From positions 9,088 through 73,087 of the forward strand of contig CAMYNQ010000001.1 in NCBI GenBank assembly GCA_947259785.1: a stretch of 64,000 bases of DNA, written 5' to 3'. The translations under genes were made by a program, and so were the position numbers. This document shows positions 11,986-58,630 of the stretch, piece after piece (the stretch's first letter is position 1; the number at the start of each line of letters is the position of its first letter). This stretch comes from an uncultured Chromatiaceae bacterium (GTDB lineage Bacteria > Pseudomonadota > Gammaproteobacteria > Tenderiales > Tenderiaceae). Below the pieces are notes generated by a model that saw only the letters and a list, made by a program, of their open reading frames with translations, did no database searches and had not been told where the DNA came from.

Positions 11986-13101
11986 CTAACCTGAATAGCA
12001 ATCGGCATAGAGCTTCTCATAGGCCTGCACCATGCCCTCCAAGGTAAATTCCCGTTCGAACTTTTGCCGCCCGGCCTTGCCCATGACGCTCAATCTTTCT
12101 TTGTCTTGCAGGAGTGCTAGGATGGCAGTGGCCAACGCTTCAGGATCATCCGCCGGTACCAGCAAACCGTTCACCTTATTTTCGACCACCTCTGAATTGC
12201 CCCCCACATCGGTGGCAACTATGGGCCTGGCCGCAGCGCTCGCCTCGATCAACGTAAGCGACAAACCTTCACTATGAGAACAAAGCACAAACAGGTCCAG
12301 AAGGTTCATCAGCTCCGGCACATCCGACCTGGCGCCCAGAAAACGGACACGGGCCTCAAGCCCCAGCGCCGTGGAAAGACTCTCCAGTTCACGACGTAGC
12401 GGCCCATCTCCAACCACCAGCAGCACCGCCTCGGGCAATCTGTCCGCCACCTTTTTCATCGCCTTGATTAGAGCTTTGTGGTTTTTGATGGGATCAAGGC
12501 GGGCAACAATACCGATCACCAACTGCCTTTTTTCCAGTCCTAGTTCAGAGCGCAGCGCATTAGCGTCATACTCTGCTCCAAAGCGCTCGGCATCAATGCC
12601 ATTGTGGATCGTGATGGTCTTTTGTTCCGCAATCCCCTCGTCGGCCACCAGATAGCGTCTACCAAACTCAGCCACTGCCACCACCTTATTCACCAGCCGT
12701 GACAAGATGCCATTGGTAAATTTCACCTTCCAACTGGATGAAAAGTCCCGGCCATGTTCTGTATAGACAATACAGGGCACGCGGGCCAACTTGCCGGCCA
12801 GGGTACCGTAGAAAAATGCCGTGGGGTTATGCAAATGGAGGATCTGCGTCTCCATCTGGCGCAGAAAACTGGCGAGTTTGAATATGTAGCGGATATCCAC
12901 GCCGGGCCTGCGCTTGAGCAAATGGACATCGATGCCCTGCTCTGGCAGCGGCTCGGCCAAGTCTCCAAGGCTATCAAAGCAGCAGATGGCAGGCTGGTAG
13001 CGACCCTGCCCCAATCGTTCGAGGAGATTAACCACCATTATCTCCAGGCCACCGATCTCTAGCCCCTGGATCAGATGCACAACACGGATAGCCTTCTTCA
13101 A
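11986..13101 (-). CDS. GT4-family (GT-B fold) glycosyltransferase
   Basis: N-terminus VVHLIQGLEIGGLE and C-terminal E-x7-E region LCSHSEGLSLTLIEASAAARPIVATDVGGNSEVV. TTG start overlaps the upstream stop (TTGA). It resembles the PEP-CTERM/EpsH1-associated sugar transferase class as I recall it. Confidence 0.8.
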   Translation of the reverse strand: MKKAIRVVHLIQGLEIGGLEIMVVNLLERLGQGRYQPAICCFDSLGDLAEPLPEQGIDVHLLKRRPGVDIRYIFKLASFLRQMETQILHLHNPTAFFYGTLAGKLARVPCIVYTEHGRDFSSSWKVKFTNGILSRLVNKVVAVAEFGRRYLVADEGIAEQKTITIHNGIDAERFGAEYDANALRSELGLEKRQLVIGIVARLDPIKNHKALIKAMKKVADRLPEAVLLVVGDGPLRRELESLSTALGLEARVRFLGARSDVPELMNLLDLFVLCSHSEGLSLTLIEASAAARPIVATDVGGNSEVVENKVNGLLVPADDPEALATAILALLQDKERLSVMGKAGRQKFEREFTLEGMVQAYEKLYADCYSG

Positions 13102-13991
13102 ATCTCGTAACCCAACTTTTCCATAGTAGGGGCAACAATCTCCATGGCCCTGGCAATCTCCTCCTCCGGCCAGGATTTATAGGTACCCGTATTCGGAACA
13201 AAACCCTTGGACTCTCTCACCTTGTAATCCTGCAACCCAGAATCATGCTGTTGTTTATAAAACTTGAGCACCTGGCCATCCCACTCTTCACCAATGAACT
13301 CGAATAGCGGGGGCAAATATATCTCTGGCTGCGAAGAATACTGCTCATAGAGGACACGAAAACACTGCTGCGGATGGGTGGCCTCAAAGGCCAGCATCTT
13401 TTCGCAGTGTTCAGCCCAATAACGGGCATTGCTTAGTCGAGCTGAATCAGGGTACAGCTCTGCGAACTTACGCCCTGGCCCCCTGTTAACATCCATACCA
13501 TGCATGTTAGCCATGGAATTGGCCACATCCAGACCGTGCCGATAAAGCATGATATAACGACACTGCTCACCAAAAACCGCATCGAGAAATTCCAAGATAT
13601 CTATATACGACGGGGTCTTGTCAAACCAGCGTTGCTTCCCCTTGGCCACCGCGTAATCATCAAAAAGATCGCCGGCAAAGGCGCGTAACTGCCGCCTCAA
13701 ACCCTCTTCATCGACCCCCATCCCCTGCAAGCCCTTCTGATACCATTCGTTGCCCCACAGCCCGGCCGCACCATTGAGAAAATTTGTCTCCGGTGGCACG
13801 GCGATGTTTTTATGGCTATCAAGGACATAACGCAGCAATGTAGTGCCCGAGCGATAAACACCAATAATAAAACCCGGCGGCAATGGCTCTCGGCCAGCTC
13901 TTTCAACAGTCTTGACCACAACTCTCTCAGGCTGTTGAGTGCCTGTTGCTGTGCAACTTATTTTGTTAAAAATGCGACTCAATAAACTCAT
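13098..13991 (-). CDS. Sulfotransferase (1 of 7)
   Basis: PAPS 5'-PSB loop IIGVYRSGTTLLRY and a 3'-PB-like motif IMLYRHGLDVANS. Confidence 0.75.
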   Translation of the reverse strand: MSLLSRIFNKISCTATGTQQPERVVVKTVERAGREPLPPGFIIGVYRSGTTLLRYVLDSHKNIAVPPETNFLNGAAGLWGNEWYQKGLQGMGVDEEGLRRQLRAFAGDLFDDYAVAKGKQRWFDKTPSYIDILEFLDAVFGEQCRYIMLYRHGLDVANSMANMHGMDVNRGPGRKFAELYPDSARLSNARYWAEHCEKMLAFEATHPQQCFRVLYEQYSSQPEIYLPPLFEFIGEEWDGQVLKFYKQQHDSGLQDYKVRESKGFVPNTGTYKSWPEEEIARAMEIVAPTMEKLGYEI

Positions 13992-14217
13992 CGTTTTCGA
14001 TCAAACACCCTTAATCCAAATTCAGCCAGGCAAAGCCTCATGCCAACGAAATGATAACAAATCCCGCCAACCACCGCGCCGCATCAAGCACGTCTTTTTT
14101 GCATTCAGATAATGGCTGCAGACAGGCTAAACCAGCTTCATGACATTCCGACACATCGCCCCCGGAACCATGTTATATTTTCCCGCATACCCACCGATCA
14201 CAAACGGTTAACTATAC

Positions 14218-15453
14218 ATGTTTTTTGCGGCCGAAATCTTGTCCTGGTTACTGATTATCATCAGCGCCTGGATTGGGCTGTGGTTGCTTCTTGCAGCCTA
14301 TTTTGCCCCTACTCTGCGAGCACTGTGGCATGAGCCGGTATTGCGTCACCCGATACTCATAGTGGAAAGTGACGACTGGGGGGCTGGCCCGTCAAAGCAG
14401 GCCCAGGCACTGCAAAAACTGATAGAACTGCTTTCCCGCTTTCATGACCACACCGGACACCCCCCCGTCATGACCCTGGCCATGATCCTGGCGGTCGCAG
14501 ATGGTGTAGCGATACGCGCCAACGGCACATACCAGCGCCGCACCCTGGAAGAGCCGTTATACGCCCCCATACGGAAAACCATTACAGAAGGGATAGAAAA
14601 GAGGGTATTTGCCATCCAACTACACGGCCTGGAACATTATTGGCCTGAAACGCTGATCAGCAGTCAGGACAAGACAGTGCAACGATGGCTGATGGAAGAA
14701 ACGCCTCAAGCCACCGAACCCCTGCCCTCCCATCTCCAGAGCCGCTGGATAGATGCCTCTACACTCCCATCCCGACCACTGCCAGACACTGCCATCCAAC
14801 CTGCCGTTCGGGAAGAGGTTGCCTTATATCGCAAAATATTTAGCCAGTTACCTAGAACAGTAGTCCCCCCCACCTTTGTCTGGACCGATGCCGTAGAGTC
14901 GGTGTGGGCAAGGCAAGGGATCGAATACGTAGTCACTCCTGGCCGGCAAAATACTTCGCGTGATGCACATGGAAAACCCGCCGCTACAGCAAACAGAATC
15001 CGCAATGGCGAAAGAAACAACAACGTTACTTATATCGTGCGCGACGACTATTTCGAACCCATGCTCGGTCATACGGCGGAAAAGGCGCTGGCGGCACTCA
15101 CTCACAAGACCCGGCTAGGCCGCCCCTGTCTGCTCGAGACCCACCGATTCAACTTCGTCGGTGAGGATGAACAAGTACAACGCTCCATGGCAGAATTGTC
15201 ACGCCTGCTGCAGAAAGCCTTGCAGACTACACCAGAATTACGTTTCATCAGCACAGAAGCGCTGGGGCTTGCCATGCAGACAAAAGATCCGGAATGGGTG
15301 GAACACCATTTAGGGCGCCGCCTGACAGTGATGGCCAAGCGTATCGCTGAAGTGCCTCGCCTGGGCAAACTCTCACGTCTCACTGGCCTGCTCACGCTGA
15401 CAAGGCTGGCTGCTGCCATGCTTGGTTACAAATCAGCAGCCCCGGCAACATGA
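14218..15453 (+). CDS. Hypothetical membrane-anchored protein (possible deacetylase/hydrolase-like barrel)
   Basis: N-terminal TM helix. Motifs ILIVESDDWG and IQLHGLEHYWPE are reminiscent of the Asp-Asp and His motifs of NodB/DUF2334-type enzymes. The family assignment is a guess. Confidence 0.45.
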   Translation: MFFAAEILSWLLIIISAWIGLWLLLAAYFAPTLRALWHEPVLRHPILIVESDDWGAGPSKQAQALQKLIELLSRFHDHTGHPPVMTLAMILAVADGVAIRANGTYQRRTLEEPLYAPIRKTITEGIEKRVFAIQLHGLEHYWPETLISSQDKTVQRWLMEETPQATEPLPSHLQSRWIDASTLPSRPLPDTAIQPAVREEVALYRKIFSQLPRTVVPPTFVWTDAVESVWARQGIEYVVTPGRQNTSRDAHGKPAATANRIRNGERNNNVTYIVRDDYFEPMLGHTAEKALAALTHKTRLGRPCLLETHRFNFVGEDEQVQRSMAELSRLLQKALQTTPELRFISTEALGLAMQTKDPEWVEHHLGRRLTVMAKRIAEVPRLGKLSRLTGLLTLTRLAAAMLGYKSAAPAT

Positions 15454-15492
15454 CAACTATTGCAACAGCCATCTCAAATTGGTCGAATTAGA

Positions 15493-16656
15493 ATGAACAA
15501 AAAACCTTTATCCTGCCTGATGCTCACCGAGATCTTCCTCCCCACCAAGGGTGGAACTGCCGTCTCCTTCGATGATGACTTCCGCCGCCTGGGGGGGAAA
15601 GAGGTACACATCATCACCGCCGATGTCCCCGGGGCAAAAGAATTTGACCGACTACACCCTAACACAGTGCACCGTTTGGGACTCAAAAGGGTCCCCTGGC
15701 TCAAGCCCGAATCCGCCCTCATGTATGCCAAATTTTTCGGCCGCGCCCTGAGCCTTGCCATGACACGGCACATCGATGCGGTCTTTTCTGGCCGCGCCCT
15801 GCCGGAGGGACTCTGCGCCTGGGCCGTTGCCAGACTCCGTCGCAAACCGGTGCTGATCTATGCCCACGGCGAGGAACTCACAGGCTGGGGACGGGGGGGA
15901 AAATTCAAGGCCATGTGCTTTGCCCTGCGCCATGCCGACTGGGTGCTCTCCAACAGCGATTTCACCCGCGACACCCTGGTCGATCTGATCGGAGTGGATC
16001 CGAAACATATCGCCATCGTCTACCCAACTGTGGATGAGCAAAGGTTTCGCCCAGGCCTGCCCGCGGATGACCTGCGCACCAGCATTGGGCTGTCAGGCGA
16101 GCAAAAATTGATCCTCTCCGTCGGCCGTCTACAAAGGCGCAAGGGTTTTGACAACGTGATTCGGTCGTTACCGGCGCTGATCGAACAGGGACTGGATGTC
16201 CACTATGCGCTGATCGGTATCGGCGAAGATCACGACTACCTGACTAGCCTGGCCCAGGAACTCGGGGTAGCACAGCGCATACACTTCCTTGGCCATGTCA
16301 GCTACGACGACCTACCCCGCTGGTACAACGCCTGCGACCTGTTCGCCATGCCCAACCGCGACATCGACGGCGACACCGAAGGCTTCGGACTGGTCTACCT
16401 GGAAGCCGCTGCCAGTGGTAAACCGAGCGTGGCGGGGAACACCGGGGGGACAGGCTCCGCCGTTGCGGATGGTGAAACGGGCTTGCGGGTGAATGGCGAA
16501 GAGGTGAAAGAGATTATCACTTCCTTGGCGCGGCTTTTATCTGATCCTGTTCAAGCTGAAATGATGGGCCGCCAGGGGCGAGAACGGGTGCTGGCAAACT
16601 TCACGCACGAGCGGCGGGTGGAAGAGTTGCGTCAGCTAACTCTGGTGAAGCGCTGA
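15493..16656 (+). CDS. GT4-family glycosyltransferase
   Basis: LTEIFLPTKGGTA at the N-terminus and C-terminal FAMPNRDIDGDTEGFGLVYLEAAASGKPSVAGNTGGTGSAV (E-x7-E). ATG 15493 is preferred over the TTG at 15460. Confidence 0.8.
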   Translation: MNKKPLSCLMLTEIFLPTKGGTAVSFDDDFRRLGGKEVHIITADVPGAKEFDRLHPNTVHRLGLKRVPWLKPESALMYAKFFGRALSLAMTRHIDAVFSGRALPEGLCAWAVARLRRKPVLIYAHGEELTGWGRGGKFKAMCFALRHADWVLSNSDFTRDTLVDLIGVDPKHIAIVYPTVDEQRFRPGLPADDLRTSIGLSGEQKLILSVGRLQRRKGFDNVIRSLPALIEQGLDVHYALIGIGEDHDYLTSLAQELGVAQRIHFLGHVSYDDLPRWYNACDLFAMPNRDIDGDTEGFGLVYLEAAASGKPSVAGNTGGTGSAVADGETGLRVNGEEVKEIITSLARLLSDPVQAEMMGRQGRERVLANFTHERRVEELRQLTLVKR

Positions 16657-16710: not shown

Positions 16711-17478
16711 TTAGGAACTTGACTCCTCCAGAAACCACTCGTACTGGCTGCCCATGAGAGCAGCTCGTACTTCGTCATAGTTCTCAATCAGCATGTCTAA
16801 TTTTTCGGGATTCTGCTTTGCCGTCCTCGGCGCTACAATCGCGGCCTCGTCCTCACCGACCCCAAGGAACTCAAAAATGTTTCTCATAATGCCATCACGA
16901 TTGGATACAAGCTGCTCATAATCAACCATGATATTTTGAAATTCGTTAGCCAAGGCATCACTACCTCTATTTTTTGCCTCCATGCGAGAAAAGGCGCGAT
17001 GTAGATCATCTATGTCTACCATAACAGTGACCCGCTCCCCTCTGTGCTCGCTCGCGCTCCAACGGTTTTCCTTATTCGCGATCATTGACGAGACATACCT
17101 CCTAAGCAGATTACGCCTAATCAGCCTGACAATTTTAAATTCATGTGTCTGCCAGTAGTGCCGAAAACTGGGGCATCTATTGAACTGGCCTGGATACAAA
17201 ACCTTGAAGCCAACAGCCCGTATATCCCCCCGAGACTCAACCGTACAAAGGGAATCAAGATACGCCCCCATGCAATAATCTCTCAAATATTTGTCAGACA
17301 TACGCCTTAGAAAAGACTTACATACCCAGTTCGCATACCCCTTGCCATAGCTAGGATTAAACGCTTCTCCGAAGCACGTAACTTGTGGATGTTCATCCAG
17401 CATTGACTGCAGCATGTTGCTGCCACTACGGGCATTACTCAACACAACGAATCTTTGAAGACCTTTCCCTTGCGACAT
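16711..17478 (-). CDS. Sulfotransferase (2 of 7; Stf0/Sulfotransfer_3-like)
   Basis: FVVLSNARSGSNMLQSML (5'-PSB loop) and KIVRLIRRNLLRRYVSS (3'-PB-like). Start at MSQGKG (ATG 17478) follows AGGAGA. Confidence 0.7.
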   Translation of the reverse strand: MSQGKGLQRFVVLSNARSGSNMLQSMLDEHPQVTCFGEAFNPSYGKGYANWVCKSFLRRMSDKYLRDYCMGAYLDSLCTVESRGDIRAVGFKVLYPGQFNRCPSFRHYWQTHEFKIVRLIRRNLLRRYVSSMIANKENRWSASEHRGERVTVMVDIDDLHRAFSRMEAKNRGSDALANEFQNIMVDYEQLVSNRDGIMRNIFEFLGVGEDEAAIVAPRTAKQNPEKLDMLIENYDEVRAALMGSQYEWFLEESSS

Positions 17479-17618: not shown

Positions 17619-19172
17619 TCAGTGCTCAACGCTCCGAGCAGCTGTATCCGCCAAAACTGAATTCTTATCCTTTGACAAGACCACCACGCCTATACCATCC
17701 ACTATGCCGACACTGGCAGGGTGCGGCCAAGGCACATGCTTAGCCGCGTATTGAATAACTTTCGGCATAGTGTTATCCGCAGCCACGAAATTCACATCCT
17801 CTCTCATCAGGCGAGCAAGATGCTGCATGTGCGGTGGGTCTATGAACTCGGTTGCTACCCCGGTAGCACTCTTGTAAGGGTAAACGGAACTCATATCGTA
17901 ACTGCCAACAACAACAATACTCTTGCCATCCCATTGTTCATCAGGAAGAGATCTTATACGCGCCAATATCTGCGTCATCGTCGTATAGTGCGCCAGCATA
18001 TTCAGGTGATTGACGGTCGAAATCCAGTTGCACTGGAGGATGTAGCCTGCGACAAGAACGATTGCCAACAGGGACGAAAGATTTCGCACCAGGATAGGAC
18101 CCGCCCTATTGATAATCATGATAAAACCGGCGATAACTACGGCATATCCTGTAAGTGTAAGATTATGATAATCGCCGTCAGGATGAAGAAGCTGCAAGAC
18201 CCTCGGCATGAAGAGCGTTAGCACCAATACAAATACTGCGCTGACCTTTGCTGCATAGCCTTTCGGCAGCCAAAGGCAAAATACCGTTGCAACCACCAGC
18301 AAGACCAGCTGCAGTTTTTTCAAGTATTCCGGAAAATAGTTTTGCGGCCAGAAAAAGAAGCTTCGTGTTCCATGCACAATTTCGGATACTGCATATGAAA
18401 GATTCATGCCGCCTTCGAGATTGAACGCTTGACCCGCCGACTGGTAGGAGTCAAATTTTAAACCCATAGACGAGACTATAGCCAAGTATATCAGGCCTCC
18501 GACGCCAACGGAGATTAGCACAGCAATTACAGACTTCACCATTTTTTTGGAAAAGAACGATTCGATATCTCTCTCAAACAGAATCTTGCTCAGAAACCAA
18601 ACACAAAAAATTGTCGCTGCGTTTGCAACCACGCTTTGATAAATTGAAAATGCACCCACATAAAGCATGGATGCCATTACCACATGAAGAAAGGTCGCTC
18701 TAGTGGACAAGATAACCGCAGCTGCAGCCAAGAAGTGGGCCATGGAAAAGGCGGCTACAGAGGTATTGTATTGATAGAGCTGGGCCATGTATGGGAATAC
18801 ACACAGAACGGAGGATATTAAAACTATATCCAACACCTTGCGAGCACCCCAGAATTTGGATATGAGCATCCCGTAAGCAGTCATCAACATAATCGCTTCG
18901 ACCATCTGCAAGAACGGCATAATGTAGGCGTTCTGGCCATAATAGTGTAGCCAACCGAAGCCGAAACGGCCTAGGTAATGACCAAGGATGGTGCTTTGAA
19001 TAAAGATGTGACTTACATCGTCATGATGCAGCGTTAGGTTGGTCATCTCAAAACCGAAGGCCAACAGATTAATACCCACGACGAGAAAAAAAGCCGTTTT
19101 GTACGAAGGATCGACTCTACGCCAAGCCTCGGACAATACTTGATCTAATGGTTTGCTGAATAAAAGCTTCAA
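17619..19172 (-). CDS. Large polytopic membrane protein, GtrII/GT-C-like putative periplasmic glycosyltransferase
   Basis: About 11-12 TM helices, an acidic first-loop motif LTLHHDDVSH and a ~110-aa soluble C-terminal domain. It occupies the 'serotype-specific Gtr' position downstream of the gtrB/gtrA-like genes. Confidence 0.5.
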   Translation of the reverse strand: MKLLFSKPLDQVLSEAWRRVDPSYKTAFFLVVGINLLAFGFEMTNLTLHHDDVSHIFIQSTILGHYLGRFGFGWLHYYGQNAYIMPFLQMVEAIMLMTAYGMLISKFWGARKVLDIVLISSVLCVFPYMAQLYQYNTSVAAFSMAHFLAAAAVILSTRATFLHVVMASMLYVGAFSIYQSVVANAATIFCVWFLSKILFERDIESFFSKKMVKSVIAVLISVGVGGLIYLAIVSSMGLKFDSYQSAGQAFNLEGGMNLSYAVSEIVHGTRSFFFWPQNYFPEYLKKLQLVLLVVATVFCLWLPKGYAAKVSAVFVLVLTLFMPRVLQLLHPDGDYHNLTLTGYAVVIAGFIMIINRAGPILVRNLSSLLAIVLVAGYILQCNWISTVNHLNMLAHYTTMTQILARIRSLPDEQWDGKSIVVVGSYDMSSVYPYKSATGVATEFIDPPHMQHLARLMREDVNFVAADNTMPKVIQYAAKHVPWPHPASVGIVDGIGVVVLSKDKNSVLADTAARSVEH

Positions 19173-19259
19173 GAGGCAACCTCAAATGGTGGTTTATTGG
19201 TTTTGAATTATGTTCAATGAGAGCCCATGTGATTAGAGCTTATGAGATATATTTTTCGC

Positions 19260-20114
19260 TCATGTTGCAAGGTCTGCATATGATATCAATTTCACACCCT
19301 TGCGCTCCAACAAATCTTTTACACCCTGATTCGTCAAGGCTTTGAGTTCATCTTGCCAGCGGTACTCCCAATGATCATAGCGGCAATCCGCGTCGTAATC
19401 TCCTGGATGGCACATCAGCTCGCAGGCTCCATTGGCGGGGAGGTTTTTTAAAACCTTCCGTAAGTTTTCTTCGCTTACATTACCACCGAAGAAAAAACCA
19501 AAAAAGTAATCGGGTCGTTTGGAACCCGATGTATTCGCAACGGAACAGAAGGTGTTTAACGCAAGAAGCTGCACCAATCGACTCAAGCTATGCTTTTCAT
19601 TCAACATGTACGACTTCAACCGCTCCTTGGGATAACGAATTGAAGGTATGGAATACTTCTTGGCTAGTTCACCGACTATTCTTCGAATACCCGGCAGCAT
19701 ATGAATGTGCTGATGACTATCAAGATGACTAATCTCTATAGAGTTATTCAAGACCTTCTGAATTTGCGCATCGAGCTCGCGTCTAACCTCATCAAGAGAT
19801 ACTTTCCCGAGAAAATATCGCTTCATAAAGCTAACCGCGTGACCATAGAAGCGCCCGTTATTATCAAGCAGTGTTGTTATATCCTCTTTATTTGATAGTG
19901 CTTCTTCCTCGATTAGGGTTAGATGTATTCCAATATCGAGGGTAGGTGTGGATCGGGATAGCTGAATGGCATGATCAAAAGCCGTCCCGACCGACATAAT
20001 TGAAGTGGAGGTGAGAATGCCATTGCGGTGCGCCTCTAAAATTCCTTCGTTTATTTTTTCCGACAGACCGAAGTCATCGGCATGCACAATGAGCTTACAA
20101 TTAGCCATAGACAT
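19260..20114 (-). CDS. YdjC-family carbohydrate deacetylase (ChbG/NaxD/HpnK-like)
   Basis: KLIVHADDFGLSEKINEGILEAHRNGILTSTSIM and LDIGIHLTL are signature YdjC N-terminal motifs. Confidence 0.85.
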   Translation of the reverse strand: MSMANCKLIVHADDFGLSEKINEGILEAHRNGILTSTSIMSVGTAFDHAIQLSRSTPTLDIGIHLTLIEEEALSNKEDITTLLDNNGRFYGHAVSFMKRYFLGKVSLDEVRRELDAQIQKVLNNSIEISHLDSHQHIHMLPGIRRIVGELAKKYSIPSIRYPKERLKSYMLNEKHSLSRLVQLLALNTFCSVANTSGSKRPDYFFGFFFGGNVSEENLRKVLKNLPANGACELMCHPGDYDADCRYDHWEYRWQDELKALTNQGVKDLLERKGVKLISYADLAT

Positions 20115-20122
20115 AACATACT

Positions 20123-21736: not shown

Positions 21737-22276
21737 CTAACCACGCGTGAGCCAATCGCCTATGGCGTGAAGCGTGGGAAGTTCCAGCTCGCACTCGGCA
21801 GGCATTCCTGCCCCGTTTAGCAGTTTGAGATTGTATCGCACCCCCGCAGCCCGGCCAGCCTCCAGATCCGAATCCTTGTCTCCCACCAGCACAGAGCGGG
21901 AAAGATCCAAATCAAACTCTTTCTGTGCTTTCAGGATCATCCCCGGATTCGGCTTACGGTCGAAGGAATCCCGCCGGTATTCGCCGATGCCAGCGGTAGG
22001 ATGATAGGGGCAGTAATAAACCCGATGAATCTGAACCCCATGATTGGCGAACTGTTCCGTCATCCACTCCGTCAAGCGCTCATAGTCCGCCACCGTGTAG
22101 TAACCTCGGCCGATGCCCGCCTGGTTGGTGATTATAATCAGCTTGAATTCCAACGTTTGTGCCAGCGTGCATAGTTCAAAGATCCCCTCAATGAACTCGA
22201 AGTCGTCGATCCGGTGGACGTAGTTTTTCTCCGCGTTAATCACACCGTCACGGTCGAGGAAGAGGGCTTTGTTCAT
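21737..22276 (-). CDS. gmhB: D-glycero-D-manno-heptose 1,7-bisphosphate phosphatase (HAD superfamily)
   Basis: FLDRDGVIN (DxDx), [25 protein letters not shown] and [11 protein letters not shown]. Confidence 0.8.
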
Positions 22277-22322
22277 TGTTGCAGCCTCATACGGCCACCC
22301 TGTTCGCGGCTACCAGCTCCTA

Positions 22323-46851: not shown

Positions 46852-46854
46852 TGC

Positions 46855-50921: not shown

Positions 50922-51952
50922 AAACCACTCCCATAAGAATCCACTTTATTACGTTGCAATGCAACAACCACAGCGCCAATTAAATTGTTTAATAAAATAC
51001 CCGCCAATGCGAAAAAACTAACCAGCAGCGCAGTTTCTGCAGGAACTCCGAATAATCCATAGAAAAAGATATACGCCACCTCTCGCACACCTAATCCACC
51101 AAACGATACCGGTAACAAAAAAACAAAAAATAATATTGGCGTAACAAACAGATTAACCATAAATGGGATATCATAACCTGCCGCCACAAAAAAAAGCTGA
51201 CTGCCGATAGCAGTAACAAGCTGTATAAGGAAGGAAAACAGAAGAATCATCGGCAAATGTCTAGGCATGGTCAACGGCGAAAGAAAATCCCGTATCGGCA
51301 CACTCGCCGTGGACGCACTATTGTTAATCCTGACCTTTTTTATAGCCATCGAAACTAGCTTGGCCAAACGCCGTTCAACTCGCTCCAACAGAGGCCTCAC
51401 TAGGCGATAGTGGCGCATTATCACAACCAACATCACAAAGGCGACCCCTAAACCAAGAACAATAACAGCCGCATCAAAGAGCTGCGTAAGCAGCTGTGAC
51501 TGACCGGAGAAAGACACGACCGGATAGAGCAAGACGATCAACAACATGCAGACAATCAATGCCATCAATTTCTCGGCAACGATAACTCCCATGTTCATAT
51601 TGTAACGACCAAAACGTCGCCCAACCGCCATAACTCGATACGCGTCCCAACCCAATCCACCTGGCACAAACATTCCCAACGCCAGGCCTATCCAATAGTG
51701 CCTACTGCTAAAATGCAGACCTACCCGACTTGAGATACATTTCCGCAGCATGTAGTTCCAACGAATCGCTCCAATAGAAACAACTATTGGACCGAGCAAT
51801 AACGCAACACAAACCAACAACACGTCTGTTTGAGCTAAATTAGCCCTAAACGCTTCCAGATCAATCTTCTGGAAAACAACATACAATATCGCTATCGGCA
51901 AACCCCAATAGAACAACCTGCGGATTGTTTTGCTAGAAGTCAGCATAAACAA
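50918..51952 (-). CDS. UPF0104 / lysyl-PG-synthase-TM-like 'flippase-like' membrane protein
   Basis: About 8 TM helices. The N-terminus LPIAILYVVFQKIDLEAFRANLAQTDVLLVCVALLLGPIVVSIGAIRWNYMLR is typical of the family. Confidence 0.6.
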   Translation of the reverse strand: MFMLTSSKTIRRLFYWGLPIAILYVVFQKIDLEAFRANLAQTDVLLVCVALLLGPIVVSIGAIRWNYMLRKCISSRVGLHFSSRHYWIGLALGMFVPGGLGWDAYRVMAVGRRFGRYNMNMGVIVAEKLMALIVCMLLIVLLYPVVSFSGQSQLLTQLFDAAVIVLGLGVAFVMLVVIMRHYRLVRPLLERVERRLAKLVSMAIKKVRINNSASTASVPIRDFLSPLTMPRHLPMILLFSFLIQLVTAIGSQLFFVAAGYDIPFMVNLFVTPILFFVFLLPVSFGGLGVREVAYIFFYGLFGVPAETALLVSFFALAGILLNNLIGAVVVALQRNKVDSYGSGL

Positions 51953-52075
51953 TGATCTTCAATTGATAACATAGAAACAGAATTTCCGGGTTAATAAAAA
52001 TAGACAGCATTTATCACGCTGCATGAGTTCACCCCATTAGAGCATGCAGGCTCGAAACCAATACAGTCGCACCAT

Positions 52076-53350
52076 CTAACGTTCGACCTCAATACTCTTC
52101 ATCTTTCCACTCTTAGCCGCCGGGAATGTCTGTACAAACTCAACCTTGAGCGGCGAAAAGTGCGTTCCAAACACCTGTTCAAGGTCCGACCGACACTGCT
52201 TGCGCTCCGCTTCACCATCTGCACGCAGTTGAATCCTGAAGACTATGTCTTTCGCCCTGGTCTGCACCACCCTATATTTGCGTATATAAAGAAAATTCTT
52301 GAAATAGTTGTAGAAAAAATGGAAGTTATATTTTTGCCCCCCATACTCAATAATGTCATCGCTTCGCCCACTGACCTCCCCCAGTAGTGGTAGCGCTCTA
52401 CCACAGTCACAATAAGAGTTCTCTGGAAGCTGAATCTCGTCACCGGTATCAAAACGGATAAATGGCATGACCCAGTTCTCGAGATTGGTCACCGCTATAG
52501 AGGCCACCTTTTTGCCGTTAGGAGCCTTACGCTCATCGCGATAGTTCACCATCATAGTCTCCATATCGACATGTAGCTGGTCGGGATGTGACGGACAACC
52601 CCAGGCAATATTGCCTATCTCCATGCAACCGTATTGATTTAGCGTTTCACAAGCAAATGTTTGGCGAAACAACTTACGATGCTCATCCGTGAGCACCTCG
52701 CTGGCAGAGAGGATGAACTTTGGCCGTATTTTAATATTGCGAGCATTCAACTCCTCTGCCAATATTTCCAGCGATGAACGGGTCGCTATCAACACATCAC
52801 AATCACTCTCCTGTATCTTGCGCACCTTTTCATCAGGCTCATCCATGATGGACACAAGCTTGCGCCGAAACATACCGAGCCTCTGCAGGACAGATGCCTT
52901 AGGCTCAACATCCTGACGCCAAAGCTGAACGGTCATATCAAAGGGGGAATAGCCCCACTCCCTTAGCATCCTCACCCCCTTCAGGGTTTGAATTAAGCTG
53001 TCGGTTGGGCTGGTCCAGATTTCAGTCGGCTCTCCGGTCGAGCCACTGGTTGTTTCTCTATGAACTTTGGCATTCAGGGACTGGGGAATCACTCTACTTT
53101 GCAGCGGAAAGCTTCTGACATACCCCTTGGTCAAAATTGGAACTTGCTCAATATCCGAAAACTCTTTAATTGAAGAGGGGCAAAAGCCGTTTGACTCGTA
53201 CAGTTCACGATACATCGGCACATGTGCATAAGCATGACTTATCAATTCTTTAAAACGTTTAAACTGAAAGGCCTCCATTTCATGGATGCTTTTACTCTTA
53301 AACGTCTTCATCCGATAATAGGCCTGAATAACGTTTCGATAATCAATCAT
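52076..53350 (-). CDS. Adenylate-forming enzyme of the PaaK/CapK family (copy 2)
   Basis: ETTSGSTGEPTEIW, FILSASEVLT, FDTGD and C-terminal SGKMKSIE. Confidence 0.7.
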   Translation of the reverse strand: MIDYRNVIQAYYRMKTFKSKSIHEMEAFQFKRFKELISHAYAHVPMYRELYESNGFCPSSIKEFSDIEQVPILTKGYVRSFPLQSRVIPQSLNAKVHRETTSGSTGEPTEIWTSPTDSLIQTLKGVRMLREWGYSPFDMTVQLWRQDVEPKASVLQRLGMFRRKLVSIMDEPDEKVRKIQESDCDVLIATRSSLEILAEELNARNIKIRPKFILSASEVLTDEHRKLFRQTFACETLNQYGCMEIGNIAWGCPSHPDQLHVDMETMMVNYRDERKAPNGKKVASIAVTNLENWVMPFIRFDTGDEIQLPENSYCDCGRALPLLGEVSGRSDDIIEYGGQKYNFHFFYNYFKNFLYIRKYRVVQTRAKDIVFRIQLRADGEAERKQCRSDLEQVFGTHFSPLKVEFVQTFPAAKSGKMKSIEVER

Positions 53351-53429
53351 ATACCCCCCTAATACTGACGTCTGTCAACTGACACCCAATGCGTAACGTG
53401 AAATACAACACTACGTTTTGTCTTTGCAT

Positions 53430-54668
53430 TTAAATACCGACAGTCACAACACCATTGAATGTTTTTACAACTATGGCAACCGTTTTTGATAAGGTGCCGA
53501 TAGCCTTGTCAACACCTTGTCTTGTCTCTCCCGAAAGCAGAAAAATAGCGGGGCGAGAGGTTTTGTCAGACATTTCCGATATCCTGCTTCCGATCTTCAA
53601 ATCCGAAACCATTGCTTGAACACCTGGTATATTTTTCGCTTCCTCCAGACCCCGTATCTCCATCACGGTACCCACAGGCAAATTACCAATAAAATAGTAA
53701 CCTGCAGCACGCTGTTGCAAAGCAATAGACTCAGAAGGAGTTTCGCCCAGGGACAATCTCAACAGAATCGTTTCCACATCCAATCCACAGGCTAACGGCA
53801 CAACATCAGATGAAATGTATGCCCCACCACCACGCGCCGCGATTTCCAGCAACATTACTTCACCGGTCTGCTCACAGACTCGAAACTCCGAATGGGTCAA
53901 ACCAAAGCCGAGTCCCAAAGTTTCCACTAGCTTGCTATTTAGATTTCGCACCTTCTGCTGCAACTCAGAATCAAGGGTTGATGGAAAGAGCCCCGCCTTA
54001 GCAATAGAAAGATCTGGAATTTCAAACAGCTCTGTATCCCCTAATGGCAGGTTGTAAAATTTCGACCCAAGCACCAAGCCATCCATGGTGACTTCTCTGC
54101 CCTCAAAATACTCCTCAACAATGACCTCACCTTGCGCATCATACTGTTTAGCCAAACGAACTCTTTCTATCAGCTCCGCTTCATTCCTTACCTTTGCCAC
54201 ACCACGGCTACCTTGGCTTGAAACAGGCTTGACGATGAGTGGATAGCGCATGGACTTAGCAACCTCAACAGCCTCAGCAACTGTATTAACTTTTTGATAG
54301 CTCACGCTGACAAAGCCGCAGCCTGCCGCAGCCTGCCGCATCAGATATTTATTGGCGAAACGCTGGGCACATGCCAATCCATTACCCGGAAGATTCATTC
54401 TTTCGGCCACATAAGCAACTGTAGTGACCGGTAGGTCTGTTTGATTAGTCACAATGGCGTCTATTTGAAGCTCCTGCGCCTTCTCCAGTATCTTTTCACG
54501 ATCTGTCACATTGACACGAAGTGATATATCGGCCTCCTTAAACCCAGGATAGTCCCCATCGATACTTGCAACAATCGTGGTTAAACCCATGTTCTTGGCT
54601 TTCCGAATCAGGGGTACCTGAAACCTACTTGCACCAAGAATCATTACCTTCTTTTTATTCGATGACAT
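53430..54668 (-). CDS. ATP-grasp domain protein (carboxylate-amine ligase type)
   Basis: VMILGASRFQVPLIRKAKNMG, YPLIVKPVSSQGSRGVAKV, VIVEEYFEGREVTMDG and LLEIAARGGG. Confidence 0.7.
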   Translation of the reverse strand: MSSNKKKVMILGASRFQVPLIRKAKNMGLTTIVASIDGDYPGFKEADISLRVNVTDREKILEKAQELQIDAIVTNQTDLPVTTVAYVAERMNLPGNGLACAQRFANKYLMRQAAAGCGFVSVSYQKVNTVAEAVEVAKSMRYPLIVKPVSSQGSRGVAKVRNEAELIERVRLAKQYDAQGEVIVEEYFEGREVTMDGLVLGSKFYNLPLGDTELFEIPDLSIAKAGLFPSTLDSELQQKVRNLNSKLVETLGLGFGLTHSEFRVCEQTGEVMLLEIAARGGGAYISSDVVPLACGLDVETILLRLSLGETPSESIALQQRAAGYYFIGNLPVGTVMEIRGLEEAKNIPGVQAMVSDLKIGSRISEMSDKTSRPAIFLLSGETRQGVDKAIGTLSKTVAIVVKTFNGVVTVGI

Positions 54669-54673
54669 ACAGC

Positions 54674-55315
54674 TTACTTTTTAGGTGATATCGGGCGTGC
54701 AGGGACACCAACGTGGTACCCAGGTTGAGCAATATCACGAACAACGACAGCTCCAGCTCCTGTGCTGCTGTAGTCACATAAGGTAACGCGGCTACTAATC
54801 GTTGTTCCAACCCCAACAAAGCAACACTGCCCCACCTGCGCGAATCCTGCTACGTTCACTCCGGGACCGAAAAAACAATGTGCCCGAATAGTAGAATCAT
54901 GGGCAATCACACATCCGACATTAAGCAGCACGTTATCTTCAATGGACACATTTCTATCAAGGCTACAACCAGGCAGGATCACAACACCGTCACCGATCCG
55001 ACAACTCTGATCAACATAAGCCGAACCATGGATCATGCTAGCAAATGGGATTCTGCCTTTTAGGCGATCAAACATCTCCTTCCTAAAAGTGAAATGCTTA
55101 TAGCCGATTGCCAAGAGAATTTGGTCGAATATCCCTTCAGAATACCGCGCCTCAATCACATCAGTCCTGCCTAGTACTTCCCCTAGGCCAACGCGATCAC
55201 CCGTTTTTTGATAATCATCAAAAAAACCAGCCAGCGCGAATTCATTATCACTATTTACATAGTGTGCAATGTGTTGCCCAAGATCACCCGCCCCAACAAT
55301 AGCCAGCCGCTTCAC
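54674..55315 (-). CDS. NeuD/PglD-family sugar N-acyltransferase (left-handed beta-helix)
   Basis: N-terminal LAIVGAGDLGQHIAHY followed by hexapeptide repeats (IGDGVVILPGCSLDRNVSIEDNVLLNVGCVIAHDSTI...). Confidence 0.75.
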   Translation of the reverse strand: MKRLAIVGAGDLGQHIAHYVNSDNEFALAGFFDDYQKTGDRVGLGEVLGRTDVIEARYSEGIFDQILLAIGYKHFTFRKEMFDRLKGRIPFASMIHGSAYVDQSCRIGDGVVILPGCSLDRNVSIEDNVLLNVGCVIAHDSTIRAHCFFGPGVNVAGFAQVGQCCFVGVGTTISSRVTLCDYSSTGAGAVVVRDIAQPGYHVGVPARPISPKK

Positions 55316-56310
55316 CCATCACTCCCTGCAAATGTCTTGGCTGTGATTCCACTATCATTATTAAAGTCACTACCGATGAGTATTTCCCTCACCACATATC
55401 TCGGCGCCCCACGCACCTCCCTGAGCACTCGTACAAGATATTCACCGATAATACCAACTGACAACAGGATTGCCCCTGAAAAAAAGGCAACCAAAATAAT
55501 TACAGTAGTCCATCCAGGCACTGTGATCTCACCTATGAAGTAACGAGTCAGGACAATGGCGATAACCAGCAAACTAAGCAGACAGGTACCCACACCAACA
55601 ACGGTTACAGCACGCAAAGGCAACAGGCTCACGTTGGCGATATTATCCAATGCAAGACGTACCTGCTTTGCCAAGGTGTAATTAGAGGAACCAGCATAAC
55701 GTTCTGCATGTTCGACCTCAATGCTCATTGTTTTTCGTGTCACAGCAAAAATCAACGAGGAAATAGCTGGGTTCTGGGTGCCGTGAGCAAGGATCGCATC
55801 CACCACCGGCCGCCGCATTACTCGGAAACTCGAATAGTCCACATTGTGTGGCAAGCCTGACGCCTTCGTATTGAGGCGACGAATAATCTTGGAACCAAAG
55901 TTACGATAGCCACTATGAAGTTTTTTACGGTAAACGCCAAAAACACAGTCAATATCAGTATTTCCCTCCAATGCCGCCAGCAGCTTGAGAAGCTGATCAG
56001 GGCGATGCTGCAGGTCGTCATCCATTGTCACCACAACATCCCCCTTAGCATGGGACAATCCGCATAGGGTTGCCATAGCCTGGCCATAATTGCGCATCAG
56101 GCACAAGGCAGACACACGGGGATACTGTGGAACCAAGGATTCAAGCACTTCCCAACTATTATCAGGTGAAGCATCGTTCACCAAGATCACTTCGTAATCC
56201 TTATGGGTCTTATCCAATGTCTCTGACAACTTCGCCAGTAGTTCAGGCAAGCAGTCAGCAGAGTTGTACACCGCTATTACAATAGACAGCTCTACTTCAG
56301 AGGGCTTCAT
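55312..56310 (-). CDS. GT2 polyprenyl-phosphate glycosyltransferase (ArnC-like)
   Basis: LSIVIAVYNSADCLPELL, VILVNDASPDNS and VVTMDDDLQHRP, plus two C-terminal TM helices. The start is uncertain (ATG 56310, 56325 or 56343; the track ORF extends to 56406). Confidence 0.8.
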   Translation of the reverse strand: MKPSEVELSIVIAVYNSADCLPELLAKLSETLDKTHKDYEVILVNDASPDNSWEVLESLVPQYPRVSALCLMRNYGQAMATLCGLSHAKGDVVVTMDDDLQHRPDQLLKLLAALEGNTDIDCVFGVYRKKLHSGYRNFGSKIIRRLNTKASGLPHNVDYSSFRVMRRPVVDAILAHGTQNPAISSLIFAVTRKTMSIEVEHAERYAGSSNYTLAKQVRLALDNIANVSLLPLRAVTVVGVGTCLLSLLVIAIVLTRYFIGEITVPGWTTVIILVAFFSGAILLSVGIIGEYLVRVLREVRGAPRYVVREILIGSDFNNDSGITAKTFAGSDG

Positions 56311-56383
56311 ATGTCGTTTATCCATCTGCTCACACGATTGCATAATATTGAGTTCGCTATAGGCACGAGCAACAAGGGCAACT

Positions 56384-57598
56384 TTAATGCTCAACCAATC
56401 GTTCATAGACTGACTGGTAGTTTGCTACACTTGCAGTCCAATTTCGCTCACACTCTACAAAACGACGCCCAGCCTCACGTACCGCTGGCCAATTTTTATG
56501 ACCAGCAAACACCTCCATGACACAATTGGCCAAGGCTTCGGCATTGCCGGCCGAAAAAAGCCAGCCCGTCTCCCGGTCGCGGATCAGTTCTTTATGGCCT
56601 CCCACGTCTGAGGCTATCAGCAAACGCCCCTGTGCCATCGCCTCCAAAGGTTTTAGTGGTGTAACCAAATCGGTAAGTCGCATCGAGAGCCTGGGATAGA
56701 CCAGCAGATCCACCAGGTTGTAGTAACTCTGTACCTCACTATGGGGCACTCGACCAGTAAAGACGACTTTATCCTCGATACCCAGCTCCTCTGCCAATTG
56801 CTTGAGATGGGCCTCCTGCGGACCACCTCCGACCAGCAGCACCCGAACCTCGGGATCGCTCTCAAGGATAGAGGGCAGTGCCTGCAACAGCAGACCCAAG
56901 CCCTCATAGGCGTAGAAAGAACCGAGGAATCCGAGTACCCGTTTATGCTCCAGTCCTAGTCGTGCCCGCAATATCGAATCAGGTTCACCGCCCATAGTGA
57001 ATTTGGAGATATCCACTGCGTTCGGAATCACCGTCACCTTATCACTTGACACACTGCGCCCTACAATCTCTTGGCGTAAGCCTTCGCAGATAGTAGTTAC
57101 AGCATCAGCACGCCGGATGACTCGCGTCTCCAACGCCCTGGTCAGGCGATAGCGCAGTCCCCACTCCTTGGCCGTGCCGTGATCCACAGCAGCGTCCTCC
57201 CAAAAGGCGCGTATCTCATATACAACGGGGATACCATGGCGCTTACCTACCCGGATTGCAGCCTCGCCATCGAGCATGGGCGAATGGGCATGCAACACGT
57301 CAGGCTTAACCTTGCCCACGACTTCATCCAGGCGCTTCTCCAGGATCGAAACTATCGCCCACTGATTGAAGATGGGTAGATCCGTCATCCACCCAGAGGA
57401 ATCGGGACAGCGAAAAAAATGCAGCCCATCAATCTCTTCCTCTTCCGCCTCTACCGTAGCGGCAAGATTATGTTTTGGACCTGTGACATGAAAGGTTTCC
57501 CAACCAAGCTTGCGTTGATGTTCCAGAATTGCCCGTGTACGGAAGGTATAACCACTATGCAATGGAATTGAATGATCCAGGACATGAAGGATACGCAT
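56384..57598 (-). CDS. GT4 glycosyltransferase of the exosortase-A-associated type
   Basis: MRILHVLDHSIPLHSGYTFRTRAILEHQRKLGWET matches the N-terminus I recall for the PEP-CTERM/XrtA-associated GT family. E-x7-E region LEAMAQGRLLIASDVGGHKELI. Confidence 0.75.
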   Translation of the reverse strand: MRILHVLDHSIPLHSGYTFRTRAILEHQRKLGWETFHVTGPKHNLAATVEAEEEEIDGLHFFRCPDSSGWMTDLPIFNQWAIVSILEKRLDEVVGKVKPDVLHAHSPMLDGEAAIRVGKRHGIPVVYEIRAFWEDAAVDHGTAKEWGLRYRLTRALETRVIRRADAVTTICEGLRQEIVGRSVSSDKVTVIPNAVDISKFTMGGEPDSILRARLGLEHKRVLGFLGSFYAYEGLGLLLQALPSILESDPEVRVLLVGGGPQEAHLKQLAEELGIEDKVVFTGRVPHSEVQSYYNLVDLLVYPRLSMRLTDLVTPLKPLEAMAQGRLLIASDVGGHKELIRDRETGWLFSAGNAEALANCVMEVFAGHKNWPAVREAGRRFVECERNWTASVANYQSVYERLVEH

Positions 57599-57655
57599 CA
57601 GCTCCCCCCCATAAAACGAACGCAAGAGGTTGCCGAACGCACGCTATATTGCATG

Positions 57656-58630
57656 TCAGGATATTTCATACAATTCTCCTCCCGCACTTCCCTTTGCAAT
57701 CGACAAAACCTCGTCAATAACTGACTGTTCCAATTCTTTCTGCCAGCTATCCGCCGCCTGTTTTGAATCACGAAAAACACTGTAATAACGATTATCAGCG
57801 GTGGTACTGCTCATGCCTAAAAACTCCCCTGTCTGCTCACTCCATGGCAAGCCGGTAAAAGCAAATAGGCGCTTGCTTTGCTCTATTGAATCCACACACA
57901 TATCTTCATAACGCAACACCAGACAATTAGGCAGGCCTTCGAGATCAGCAAGAACCTTTTCATTCGTCAACACCCAGCGCCAGGTCATACGGGCAACCGG
58001 GCTGAGTTCACGAAAATTATCGACACTCAATCCATGCCTCGTGGCCAACTCCAACTTTAGCAACGGCCTCATGTAATCAAGGTCGCGCCCTGGGTCATAA
58101 TCGGATTCAAATGTCTTCAGACGCTTACCCCTGAGCATGGAGGCAATGTAACCGCAGGGGTGTCTAACGATATAAACTCCCTTGATATCAGGAAAGTTCT
58201 TGGCAATAGCCGCTAGCCGCCCGGCACCCTCAATCGATTTCCAGACACGACGAACCGGTTTGTCTGGTGCAGCCCCAACAGGTGTCAAAATAGGAAAATT
58301 ATTCATCCAACGTGAAACCCCCTTTGCTGCCAGCACACTCAGACGGTGCGCGGCGTATCCTCCAGGCAGAAAATAGTTTTTGGGGAAAATGGGCGCTTTG
58401 CCTCGCACTTTTACGCCATTCAGACGCATCAGAACATCTAGATAGTCATGCAGCTTTTCACGATATTGCTCTCCTTCTGAAAACTCCACCAGGCGTGGAA
58501 TTTCACGGGTGCGAATAATACTGTCTGGCTCATGAAAATAGAGCGTCTGTGGATGGCTATCAAAAATCTTGCCCAACCAGGTTGTGCCGGAGCGAGGAGT
58601 ACCAAACAATAGAATCATACCTTCAAACAT
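57656..58630 (-). CDS. Sulfotransferase (7 of 7)
   Basis: ILLFGTPRSGTTWLGKIF (5'-PSB) and GVYIVRHPCGYIASML (3'-PB-like). The start (58630 or 58618) is uncertain. Confidence 0.75.
   Translation of the reverse strand: MFEGMILLFGTPRSGTTWLGKIFDSHPQTLYFHEPDSIIRTREIPRLVEFSEGEQYREKLHDYLDVLMRLNGVKVRGKAPIFPKNYFLPGGYAAHRLSVLAAKGVSRWMNNFPILTPVGAAPDKPVRRVWKSIEGAGRLAAIAKNFPDIKGVYIVRHPCGYIASMLRGKRLKTFESDYDPGRDLDYMRPLLKLELATRHGLSVDNFRELSPVARMTWRWVLTNEKVLADLEGLPNCLVLRYEDMCVDSIEQSKRLFAFTGLPWSEQTGEFLGMSSTTADNRYYSVFRDSKQAADSWQKELEQSVIDEVLSIAKGSAGGELYEIS

Follow-up and report, generated by a model that had tools for sequence, protein, structure and literature searches.

Seven predicted sulfotransferases, one fused to a putative pseudo-CysQ domain, in an exosortase A glycan locus of an uncultured proteobacterium

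The window analysed here, a 64,000-nucleotide stretch of contig CAMYNQ010000001.1 (assembly GCA_947259785.1, an uncultured Chromatiaceae bacterium), covers most of an exosortase A (XrtA) locus for an extracellular glycan; the locus spans roughly 65 kb and is of proteobacterial origin. Seven sulfotransferase-family genes, designated ST1 to ST7 along the window (Table 1), lie within it, and its probable product is a surface glycan bearing many sulfate groups; loci of this type recur in genomes but have yet to be studied. The preferred explanation, to which a probability of about 0.6 is assigned, is a Wzx-dependent, XrtA-linked pathway in which seven soluble sulfotransferases modify the repeat unit at different positions. 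Sulfotransferase-bearing exopolysaccharide clusters are a known kind of locus; this one is unusually rich in sulfotransferases, is tied to XrtA, and has one of the enzymes, ST4, fused to a pseudo-CysQ domain.

All seven genes encode sulfotransferase-family proteins whose activity is predicted. The initial annotation had picked out seven open reading frames by motifs for binding 3'-phosphoadenosine 5'-phosphosulfate (PAPS), and these frames, with their coordinates, strands and motifs, are all present in the translations. Pfam matches were examined gene by gene over about 74 kb of contig CALZHJ010000001.1 (77,476 bp; metagenome-assembled genome GCA_945787175.1), comprising the window, which corresponds to its bases 2126–66125, and flanks, with passes judged by gathering scores for Pfam and by curated cut-offs for NCBIfam. 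On this basis, six of the seven frames exceed a sulfotransferase gathering score, and the E-values exclude chance as the source of the profile matches. Each translation contains a 5'-phosphosulfate-binding (5'-PSB) loop near its N-terminus together with a 3'-phosphate-binding (3'-PB) Arg...Ser motif, and each protein is full-length against its model. The proteins belong to distinct subfamilies, as the initial annotation had held, with four of the Sulfotransfer_3/1 type, one Sulfotransfer_2, one Sulfotransfer_4 and one from a family orphaned in Pfam, and gene calls and Pfam place them interleaved with glycosyltransferase family 2 (GT2) and family 4 (GT4) genes. Pairwise identity among the seven does not exceed 25%, and BLASTP detects only the pairs ST1/ST3 (24%) and ST3/ST7 (25%). 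By this measure they are not recent duplicates, and because most pairs are undetectable to BLASTP at such low identity, different specificities are predicted. Moreover, since no membrane segment or obvious signal peptide is predicted in any of the seven, their predicted location is cytoplasmic.

Two of the enzymes carry further hints of a glycan substrate. ST3 is wedged between two GT2 genes, overlapping the downstream one by 17 nt and lying 2 nt from the upstream one. ST1 (52.7 bits) and, marginally, ST3 (17 bits) are weakly similar to the profile of NoeE, a rhizobial carbohydrate sulfotransferase whose substrate is a sugar in an exported glycoconjugate; these scores are far under the equivalog cut-off of 500, and the acceptor and genetic context of NoeE differ. 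A sequence search of the PDB with ST6 returned no match.

ST5 belongs to a sulfotransferase family that Pfam largely misses. The frame originally drawn at 36091–37002, for which the gene caller sets the start at 36166, stands as a sulfotransferase by family, fold and motifs, but matches no Pfam or NCBIfam model. It has 407 homologues in a large protein collection, and its family comprises 487 clusters (50% identity) at E ≤ 1e-30, across which K15, G18, E19, R20 and N21 as well as K117, P119 and S125 are invariant. Sulfotransfer_1 (PF00685) is matched by 11 of 27 family members and Sulfotransfer_3 (PF13469) by 10 of 27, with no match to any other family. Because the family profile, when run against PDB sequences, gave only sub-threshold sulfotransferase matches (E = 0.3), a fold comparison was needed. 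The AlphaFold model of ST5 has a mean pLDDT of 92.3 and a pTM of 0.89, and nearly all of its top 50 Foldseek matches in the PDB are PAPS sulfotransferases, led by SULT1C2 (E = 1.8e-4) and including tyrosylprotein sulfotransferases and the CurM and OLS sulfotransferase domains. Most members of the family escape the current Pfam and NCBIfam models; Pfam-based sulfotransferase counts at such loci are therefore too low.

In ST4, a CysQ-like domain that the initial annotation overlooked is fused behind the sulfotransferase domain. CysQ is the 3'(2'),5'-bisphosphate nucleotidase, and its model TIGR01331 is the best NCBIfam match of the ST4 C-terminal domain (120.9 bits, under the 228.8-bit equivalog cut-off). 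By sequence the domain is clearly related to Bacteroides thetaiotaomicron CysQ (3B8B; E = 2e-22), which is also the best PDB match of its structural model (E = 1.1e-17, target TM-score 0.73), so that the domain has the fold of CysQ proteins such as 3B8B and the Mycobacterium tuberculosis enzyme 5DJK. The active site differs. Relative to 3B8B, LSEEG becomes LSVEG, DPLDGT becomes DIHSGA and WDTAAG becomes WEVAAA; specifically, the TEAD Asp is replaced by Lys, the first Glu of SEE by Val, and WD by WE. Other residues thus stand in place of the Asp/Glu metal ligands and of the Thr in DPxDGT, and ST4 differs from CysQ both in lacking the metal ligands and in carrying the domain behind a sulfotransferase.

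A census of the 120 best homologue clusters reveals that this combination is conserved. The two-domain architecture is the same in 120 of 120 clusters, whose sources include Ca. Tenderia electrophaga, Methylotuvimicrobium sp. KM1 and metagenome-assembled genomes (MAGs) of Thiobacillus, Casimicrobiaceae and Desulfobacula. On the sulfotransferase side, the PAPS-binding residues K16, T17, T19, R87 and S95 are invariant in 119 to 120 of the clusters. On the CysQ-like side, 119 clusters lack one or more of the phosphatase site's five acidic ligands; the first Glu of SEE is kept in three and the WD Asp in two, and the upstream TEAD Asp does not appear among the eight most frequent residues of its alignment column. 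Elsewhere in the domain conservation persists: W288, G321, P326, A422 and N447 are invariant. A single cluster, P0226, keeps all five acidic ligands and every canonical CysQ motif (TEAD, SEE, DPLDGT, WDIAAG), and the fusion may have originated with an active phosphatase for 3'-phosphoadenosine 5'-phosphate (PAP) that later decayed in most lineages.

Collectively, these replacements make the ST4 C-terminal domain look like a conserved, catalytically dead pseudo-phosphatase. PAP is a strong product inhibitor of sulfotransferases, and an active Inositol_P domain recycling this by-product was considered and rejected on the residue-level comparison with CysQ. The most likely role of the pseudo-CysQ domain is to bind PAP or PAPS or to serve as a scaffold; destruction of PAP by the domain is improbable. 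A literature search found no paper on a sulfotransferase–CysQ fusion, and likewise none on PF17784 in bacteria; the conserved sulfotransferase–pseudo-CysQ fusion appears undescribed. It offers a clean example of a domain whose fold is kept and which is conserved after loss of its catalytic residues, and it raises the question of how PAP is handled.

The XrtA character proposed for the locus is genuine, as five marker families exceed their NCBIfam cut-offs (Table 1). Just past the right edge of the window lie genes for a FemAB-like protein, a deacetylase/DUF3473 protein, a UDP-GlcNAc 2-epimerase, an AAA ATPase, Wzz, a ParA/CbiA-type kinase and Poly_export. The locus therefore shares with canonical XrtA/PEP-CTERM exopolysaccharide loci, named after the Methylobacillus eps locus, the five markers together with the polysaccharide co-polymerase and outer-membrane polysaccharide export (PCP/OPX) genes, ATPase, deacetylase and FemAB in the usual order. 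Unlike them, it adds a 30-kb glycan-specific extension with six further sulfotransferases. ST7 sits inside the XrtA core, and the other six lie downstream of the ligase and Wzx. The position of ST7, the comparable placement of its orthologues, and the recurrence elsewhere of the ST5/ST6/fusion set argue that the sulfotransferases belong to the XrtA pathway.

In the proposed pathway, GT2 and GT4 enzymes working on the cytoplasmic side of the membrane would assemble a complex repeat unit on an undecaprenyl-phosphate carrier, with rhamnose, heptose and amino sugars among its components. While the unit is still lipid-linked in the cytoplasm, the only compartment with PAPS available, the seven soluble and mutually unrelated PAPS-type sulfotransferases would O-sulfate different acceptor positions, given a presumed supply of PAPS. 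Further enzymes would attach acyl, amino-acid and formyl groups. The Wzx flippase (40405–41880) would then take the unit across the membrane, the exosortase-associated Wzy_C/O-ligase-family protein (42089–43402) would polymerise or ligate it, and the XrtA-linked PCP/OPX machinery (Wzz/kinase/Poly_export) beyond the right edge would export the product. Sulfation of a glycan in the cytoplasm is supported because the ST3–GT2 coupling is conserved in three other genomes, ST6 is of the carbohydrate-sulfotransferase type, and ST1 is weakly NoeE-like. Sulfation at several positions, as first suggested for this locus, is plausible but only partly supported.

Comparison with other genomes reveals two conserved modules. 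The block at 24094–36071, whose conservation in other gammaproteobacteria the initial annotation had not picked up, is reproduced gene for gene, with a divergent fusion, in Ca. Tenderia electrophaga and GCA_030148045.1, both of which also have the GT2–ST3–GT2 arrangement, and it is found in part in Methylotuvimicrobium sp. KM1 and Seongchinamella sediminis. A second sub-module occurs in GCA_006844585.1, where a 403-aa protein, a formyltransferase, an ST5 homologue, a Sulfotransfer_2 gene, Wzx, an FG-GAP/UnbV_ASPIC protein and the fusion lie together; the same set is partly present in Methylotuvimicrobium sp. KM1. Across genomes and metagenomes, 24 of 30 fusion-bearing loci of at least 9 kb have one to two further sulfotransferases within 10 kb. 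Seven is the highest count met, at a density of 0.15 per kb vs 0.14 per kb in the other fusion-bearing loci, which puts the window towards the top of the range for a pattern that recurs but is uncharacterised.

The ST7 context recurs as well. ST7 has 792 homologues at E ≤ 1e-3, and in six other loci (L173, L172, L017, L036, L046 and L051) an orthologue lies immediately downstream of a gene for an amidotransferase of the asparagine-synthase family; in L172, from Seongchinamella sediminis, the neighbouring amidotransferase is a second, 584-aa paralogue. A gammaproteobacterial MAG shows the order xrtA-epsI, GT4, amidotransferase, ST7 orthologue, CapK-like, Wzy_C/DUF5935 and a second sulfotransferase. 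The cultured S. sediminis combines two sulfotransferases, a ligase homologue and Wzx with a membrane-anchored sulfatase-like protein and its GT2 array. In a survey of 80 genomic loci around amidotransferase homologues (51–74% identity), scanned within 10 kb using iterated profiles that were seeded with the seven sulfotransferases of the window, so that the counts are lower bounds, at least one sulfotransferase was detected in 14, or in 11 of the 48 with full 10-kb flanks, with a maximum of two; about 80% of the loci have no detectable sulfotransferase in that range, and the same range around the window's own amidotransferase holds one. With ST7 contexts in two other genomes, these counts make the sulfotransferase–XrtA combination recurrent. 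The initial annotation had presented it as not known to be characterised, and a full-text search of the available literature library found nothing that ties exosortase/PEP-CTERM systems to sulfation, the synechan paper matching only in its text or reference list; its rarity, however, was overstated, as a sulfotransferase lies no more than 10 kb from the amidotransferase in roughly every fifth to sixth XrtA locus and the combination is not unusual in genomes.

Several observations, collected in this and the next two paragraphs, weigh against a single XrtA polymer sulfated by all seven enzymes. GC content varies block-wise between 0.44 and 0.58 along the window, a mosaic that would permit more than one glycan and is usual for polysaccharide loci, and in Tenderia and Methylotuvimicrobium the 24–36 kb module is linked to an ABC transporter bearing Wzt_C, a domain typical of O-antigen export. 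These features suit an arrangement in which the XrtA exopolysaccharide (about 42–64 kb and beyond) carries ST7 only and ST1–ST6 belong to one or two adjacent O-antigen, capsule or Gtr-type clusters, with no single polymer sulfated at seven positions. In keeping with it, the GC shifts fall between blocks of the 57-kb region, the XrtA-specific NCBIfam families end at 42089, the rml and heptose genes and the Gtr-like set are what lipopolysaccharide (LPS) loci typically carry, and XrtA loci elsewhere have at most two sulfotransferases within 10 kb of the amidotransferase. Such a division into several glycans is a realistic possibility, if somewhat unlikely: the window contains a single Wzx and no second export system, and its genes run almost continuously on one strand. 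Moreover, the formyltransferase/403-aa pair that adjoins the XrtA ligase in the window directly flanks the sulfotransferase-rich module in Methylotuvimicrobium KM1 and GCA_006844585.1, and in Seongchinamella the sulfatase-like protein and GT2 array share an XrtA-type cluster with two sulfotransferases.

The nature of the acceptor is a second point. Tyrosylprotein sulfotransferases are, weakly (E = 6e-5), the closest solved relatives of ST3, and a protein acceptor for the Sulfotransfer_3-type enzymes may be conceivable. The product could then be sulfated glycoproteins, either because the O-glycosylation-ligase homologue places the glycan on PEP-CTERM proteins or because some Sulfotransfer_3 enzymes sulfate protein tyrosines. 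The ligase homologue at 42089–43402 matches TIGR03097 (453.6 bits), a family whose function is itself a hypothesis only, and weakly the O-oligosaccharyltransferase TfpM, and a PMT_2/ArnT-like protein is encoded at 48166–49764. Sludge extracellular polymeric substances (EPS) contain sulfated glycoconjugates, not polysaccharides alone (PMC10483923). This explanation is improbable, however, given that a complete Wzz/kinase/Poly_export polymer system adjoins the locus, that the tyrosylprotein matches are weak, and that ST3 is translationally coupled to GT2 genes. A simple regular-expression scan for C-terminal motifs found no PEP-CTERM tail in the window or at the contig ends, a result that counts against the glycoprotein route as well as against the XrtA polymer. 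PEP-CTERM genes are usually dispersed over the genome, and a scan of the locus alone says little about the genome as a whole.

The third point is whether the enzymes act at all. No APS-kinase, ATP-sulfurylase or sulfate-permease domain, and no cysD, cysN or cysC gene, is present on the approximately 74 kb of contig, which extends the absence of cysDN/cysC and a sulfate transporter already reported for the window, and the fold matches of ST5 have modest TM-scores of 0.35–0.47. An ABC ATPase at 545–1600 was considered as the sulfate-transporter component CysA and rejected, its best models being PhnT2/PotA. The missing PAPS pathway genes, the modest Pfam scores of ST2 and ST6, and the CysQ-like domain as evidence that catalytic decay occurs in this locus would be in line with some or most of the homologues being inactive, or using lipids, small molecules or other non-glycan acceptors, and with a product that is unsulfated or lightly sulfated. 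Yet each of the seven proteins has both a 5'-PSB and a 3'-PB motif, with the motifs invariant in the ST4 and ST5 families; each is full-length against its model; and the placement of these genes amid glycosyltransferase genes is shared across genomes. Inactivity or a non-glycan acceptor is accordingly the least probable of the explanations considered. The Wzx-dependent pathway with seven active sulfotransferases remains the preferred one.

Among known sulfated-glycan systems, the synechan (xss) cluster of Synechocystis sp. PCC 6803 is the nearest in organisation. It produces a sulfated exopolysaccharide with two sulfotransferases, and like the window it combines Wzx/Wzy-type synthesis, PAPS-type sulfotransferase subfamilies among many glycosyltransferases, and PCP/OPX export (PMC8205485). 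It has two sulfotransferases against seven, and lacks an exosortase, amidotransferase, stp genes and a CysQ-like fusion (PMC8205485). Moreover, xss is cyanobacterial, plasmid-borne and regulated by XssQRS, and the sulfation of its product is demonstrated (PMC8205485), whereas for the window sulfation is predicted. The capsule cluster of Cobetia marina KMM 1449 is likewise gammaproteobacterial, joins sulfotransferase and rhamnose genes, and has a linked CysQ function (PMC11766843). It differs in using the ABC (kps) pathway and in containing a sulfate permease gene alongside cysNC, cysD and a separate cysQ whose annotated function is PAP phosphatase (PMC11766843), whereas the window has no PAPS-synthesis genes and carries its CysQ-like domain fused to a sulfotransferase and devoid of catalytic residues. 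Sulfated glycosaminoglycan-like exopolymers are also described from Pontiella (PMC7356697).

Sulfated polysaccharides, which are valued biomaterials, have been called scarce outside cyanobacteria (PMC8205485), while sulfated glycoconjugates are chemically widespread in granular-sludge EPS and environmental biofilms, with the responsible bacterial pathways and sulfotransferases described as unknown (PMC10483923). The gene content of the locus is not in itself astonishing to a specialist; its value lies in testable candidates for bacterial polysaccharide sulfation, namely the GT/sulfotransferase module, the XrtA-adjacent sulfotransferase and the Pfam-orphan sulfotransferase family. Similar smaller loci in the cultured Seongchinamella sediminis and Methylotuvimicrobium sp. 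KM1 make the prediction directly testable. A broader proposition is speculative and rather unlikely: XrtA-linked sulfotransferase-rich loci might form a widespread class that makes multiply sulfated proteobacterial exopolymers, the basis of the "sulfated glycosaminoglycan-like" material of biofilms and sludge. The pseudo-CysQ domain would then be a new pseudoenzyme module that binds PAP or PAPS and, by relieving product inhibition, sensing the PAPS/PAP ratio or channelling the donor, organises a sulfation assembly line.

Table 1. Features of the window, with coordinates, strand and supporting assignments.
Feature	Coordinates	Strand	Assignment and evidence
Left end	1–4060		Ornithine carbamoyltransferase C-terminus, PotA/PhnT2-like ABC ATPase, two c-type cytochromes, trypsin-like protease; unrelated housekeeping
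dTDP-L-rhamnose genes rmlBADC (8527–11925) and GT4 adjoining ST1	8527–13080	-	Pfam
ST1	13098–13991	-	Sulfotransfer_3 93.4 bits; Sulfotransfer_3/1 enzyme, soluble; 5'-PSB YRSGTT; 3'-PB RHGLDVANS
ST2	16711–17478	-	Sulfotransfer_3 57.9 bits; soluble; ARSGSN; RRNLLRRYVSS
Gtr-like set: GT2, GtrA-family, YdjC-family, 10-TM (transmembrane) Glucos_trans_II-like	17619–21660	-	Pfam, membrane-segment count
Heptose supply: GmhB, HddC-like, HddA-like	21737–24122	-	TIGR00213 184.8 bits (passes); HddC 203.8, HddA 458.2 (both below cut-off)
Conserved glycan module	24094–34275	-	Sulfatase-like membrane-anchored protein, GT2, ST3, GT2, GT2, polysaccharide deacetylase, GT2, 370-aa protein, WbsX
ST3	27217–28164	-	Sulfotransfer_3 93.7 bits
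ST4 fusion	34692–36071	+	Sulfotransfer_4 (PF17784, S. mansoni-type) 105.4 bits, aa 8–185; Inositol_P (PF00459) 76.8 bits, aa 228–441
ST5	36166–37002	+	Divergent sulfotransferase, Pfam orphan; GERNTGT; TKNPYAWALS
ST6	37286–37969	-	Sulfotransfer_2 (carbohydrate-sulfotransferase-type) 49.8 bits, whole model covered
FG-GAP/UnbV_ASPIC protein, N-terminal anchor	38022–40040	-	Pfam, membrane prediction
Wzx-type MOP flippase	40405–41880	-	Pfam Polysacc_synt; PRK10459 201.7 bits; ~11 membrane segments
Exosortase-A-associated putative O-glycosylation ligase/polymerase (PEP_O_lig_1; Wzy_C/DUF5935)	42089–43402	-	TIGR03097 453.6 bits (cut-off 188.1)
Decoration/assembly block	43392–56406	-	GT2, GT4, hexapeptide acyltransferase, ATP-grasp ligase, two PaaK/CapK-like adenylating enzymes, flippase-like membrane protein, DegT aminotransferase, PMT_2/ArnT-like protein (48166–49764), 403-aa protein, formyltransferase; Pfam, NCBIfam
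stp3 GT4 glycosyltransferase	56384–57598	-	TIGR04063 646.3 bits (cut-off 442.05)
ST7	57656–58630	-	Sulfotransfer_3 60.2 bits and Sulfotransfer_1 44.3 bits; between XrtA amidotransferase and stp3
XrtA/PEP-CTERM amidotransferase	58661–60550	-	TIGR03108 1101.8 bits (cut-off 816.9)
Exosortase A fused to EpsI	60624–62174	-	TIGR03109 364.5 bits (cut-off 208); EpsI TIGR02914 141.6 (42.8)
stp1 glycosyltransferase	62171–63391	-	TIGR03087 557.1 bits (cut-off 316.65)

The left boundary of the polysaccharide locus probably falls somewhere from about 4.8 to 8.5 kb of the window, and from about 8.5 kb to the right edge most genes lie on the minus strand, with exceptions at 14218–16656 and 34692–37002. No Rfam family reached its gathering threshold in a scan of the window. 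Beside the rhamnose genes, the heptose genes are those for GDP-D-glycero-D-manno-heptose, and the product probably includes both sugars; the Gtr-like set, situated between sulfotransferase-bearing blocks, suggests periplasmic glucosylation from a polyprenyl-phosphate sugar. In the decoration/assembly block, the two PaaK/CapK-like adenylate-forming enzymes and an ATP-grasp ligase (45457–46851, 52076–53350 and 53430–54644, minus strand) lie near the DegT aminotransferase, acyltransferase and formyltransferase genes, a set that points to amino sugars decorated with amide-linked acyl groups or amino acids.

Two features of GCA_006844585.1 extend this picture. Its Wzx and FG-GAP/UnbV_ASPIC proteins are fused as one 1153-aa protein (L169, 13813–17274), which suggests that the adjacent Wzx and FG-GAP/UnbV_ASPIC genes of the window work together. 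A heparinase II/III-like gene (L169, 10846–13041), with no counterpart in the window, lies between its ST5 homologue and Sulfotransfer_2 gene and hints at an acidic, glycosaminoglycan-like polymer.

The 716-aa protein at 24094–26244 (minus strand), which is part of the conserved glycan module and is kept beside the GT2/sulfotransferase module in Tenderia, GCA_030148045.1 and Seongchinamella, matches PF00884 (Sulfatase) of the alkaline-phosphatase superfamily, with 125.5 bits against the arylsulfatase model PRK13759 (cut-off 481). A role as a polymer-trimming sulfatase was considered and rejected: at the C/S-x-P-x-R formylglycine position, placed by eye, it reads T-A-P-S-L and so has no formylglycine motif, a point missed by the initial annotation, and its five N-terminal membrane segments match the architecture of LtaS/EptA-type phosphotransferases. 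Judged by these features, it looks like an LtaS/EptA/OpgB-type transferase of phospho-substituents. Next to the module, a 416-bp divergent intergenic region (34276–34691) separates the WbsX-led operon from the fusion/ST5 operon and probably holds shared promoters; a similar divergent gap of about 480–540 bp occurs in Tenderia and GCA_030148045.1.

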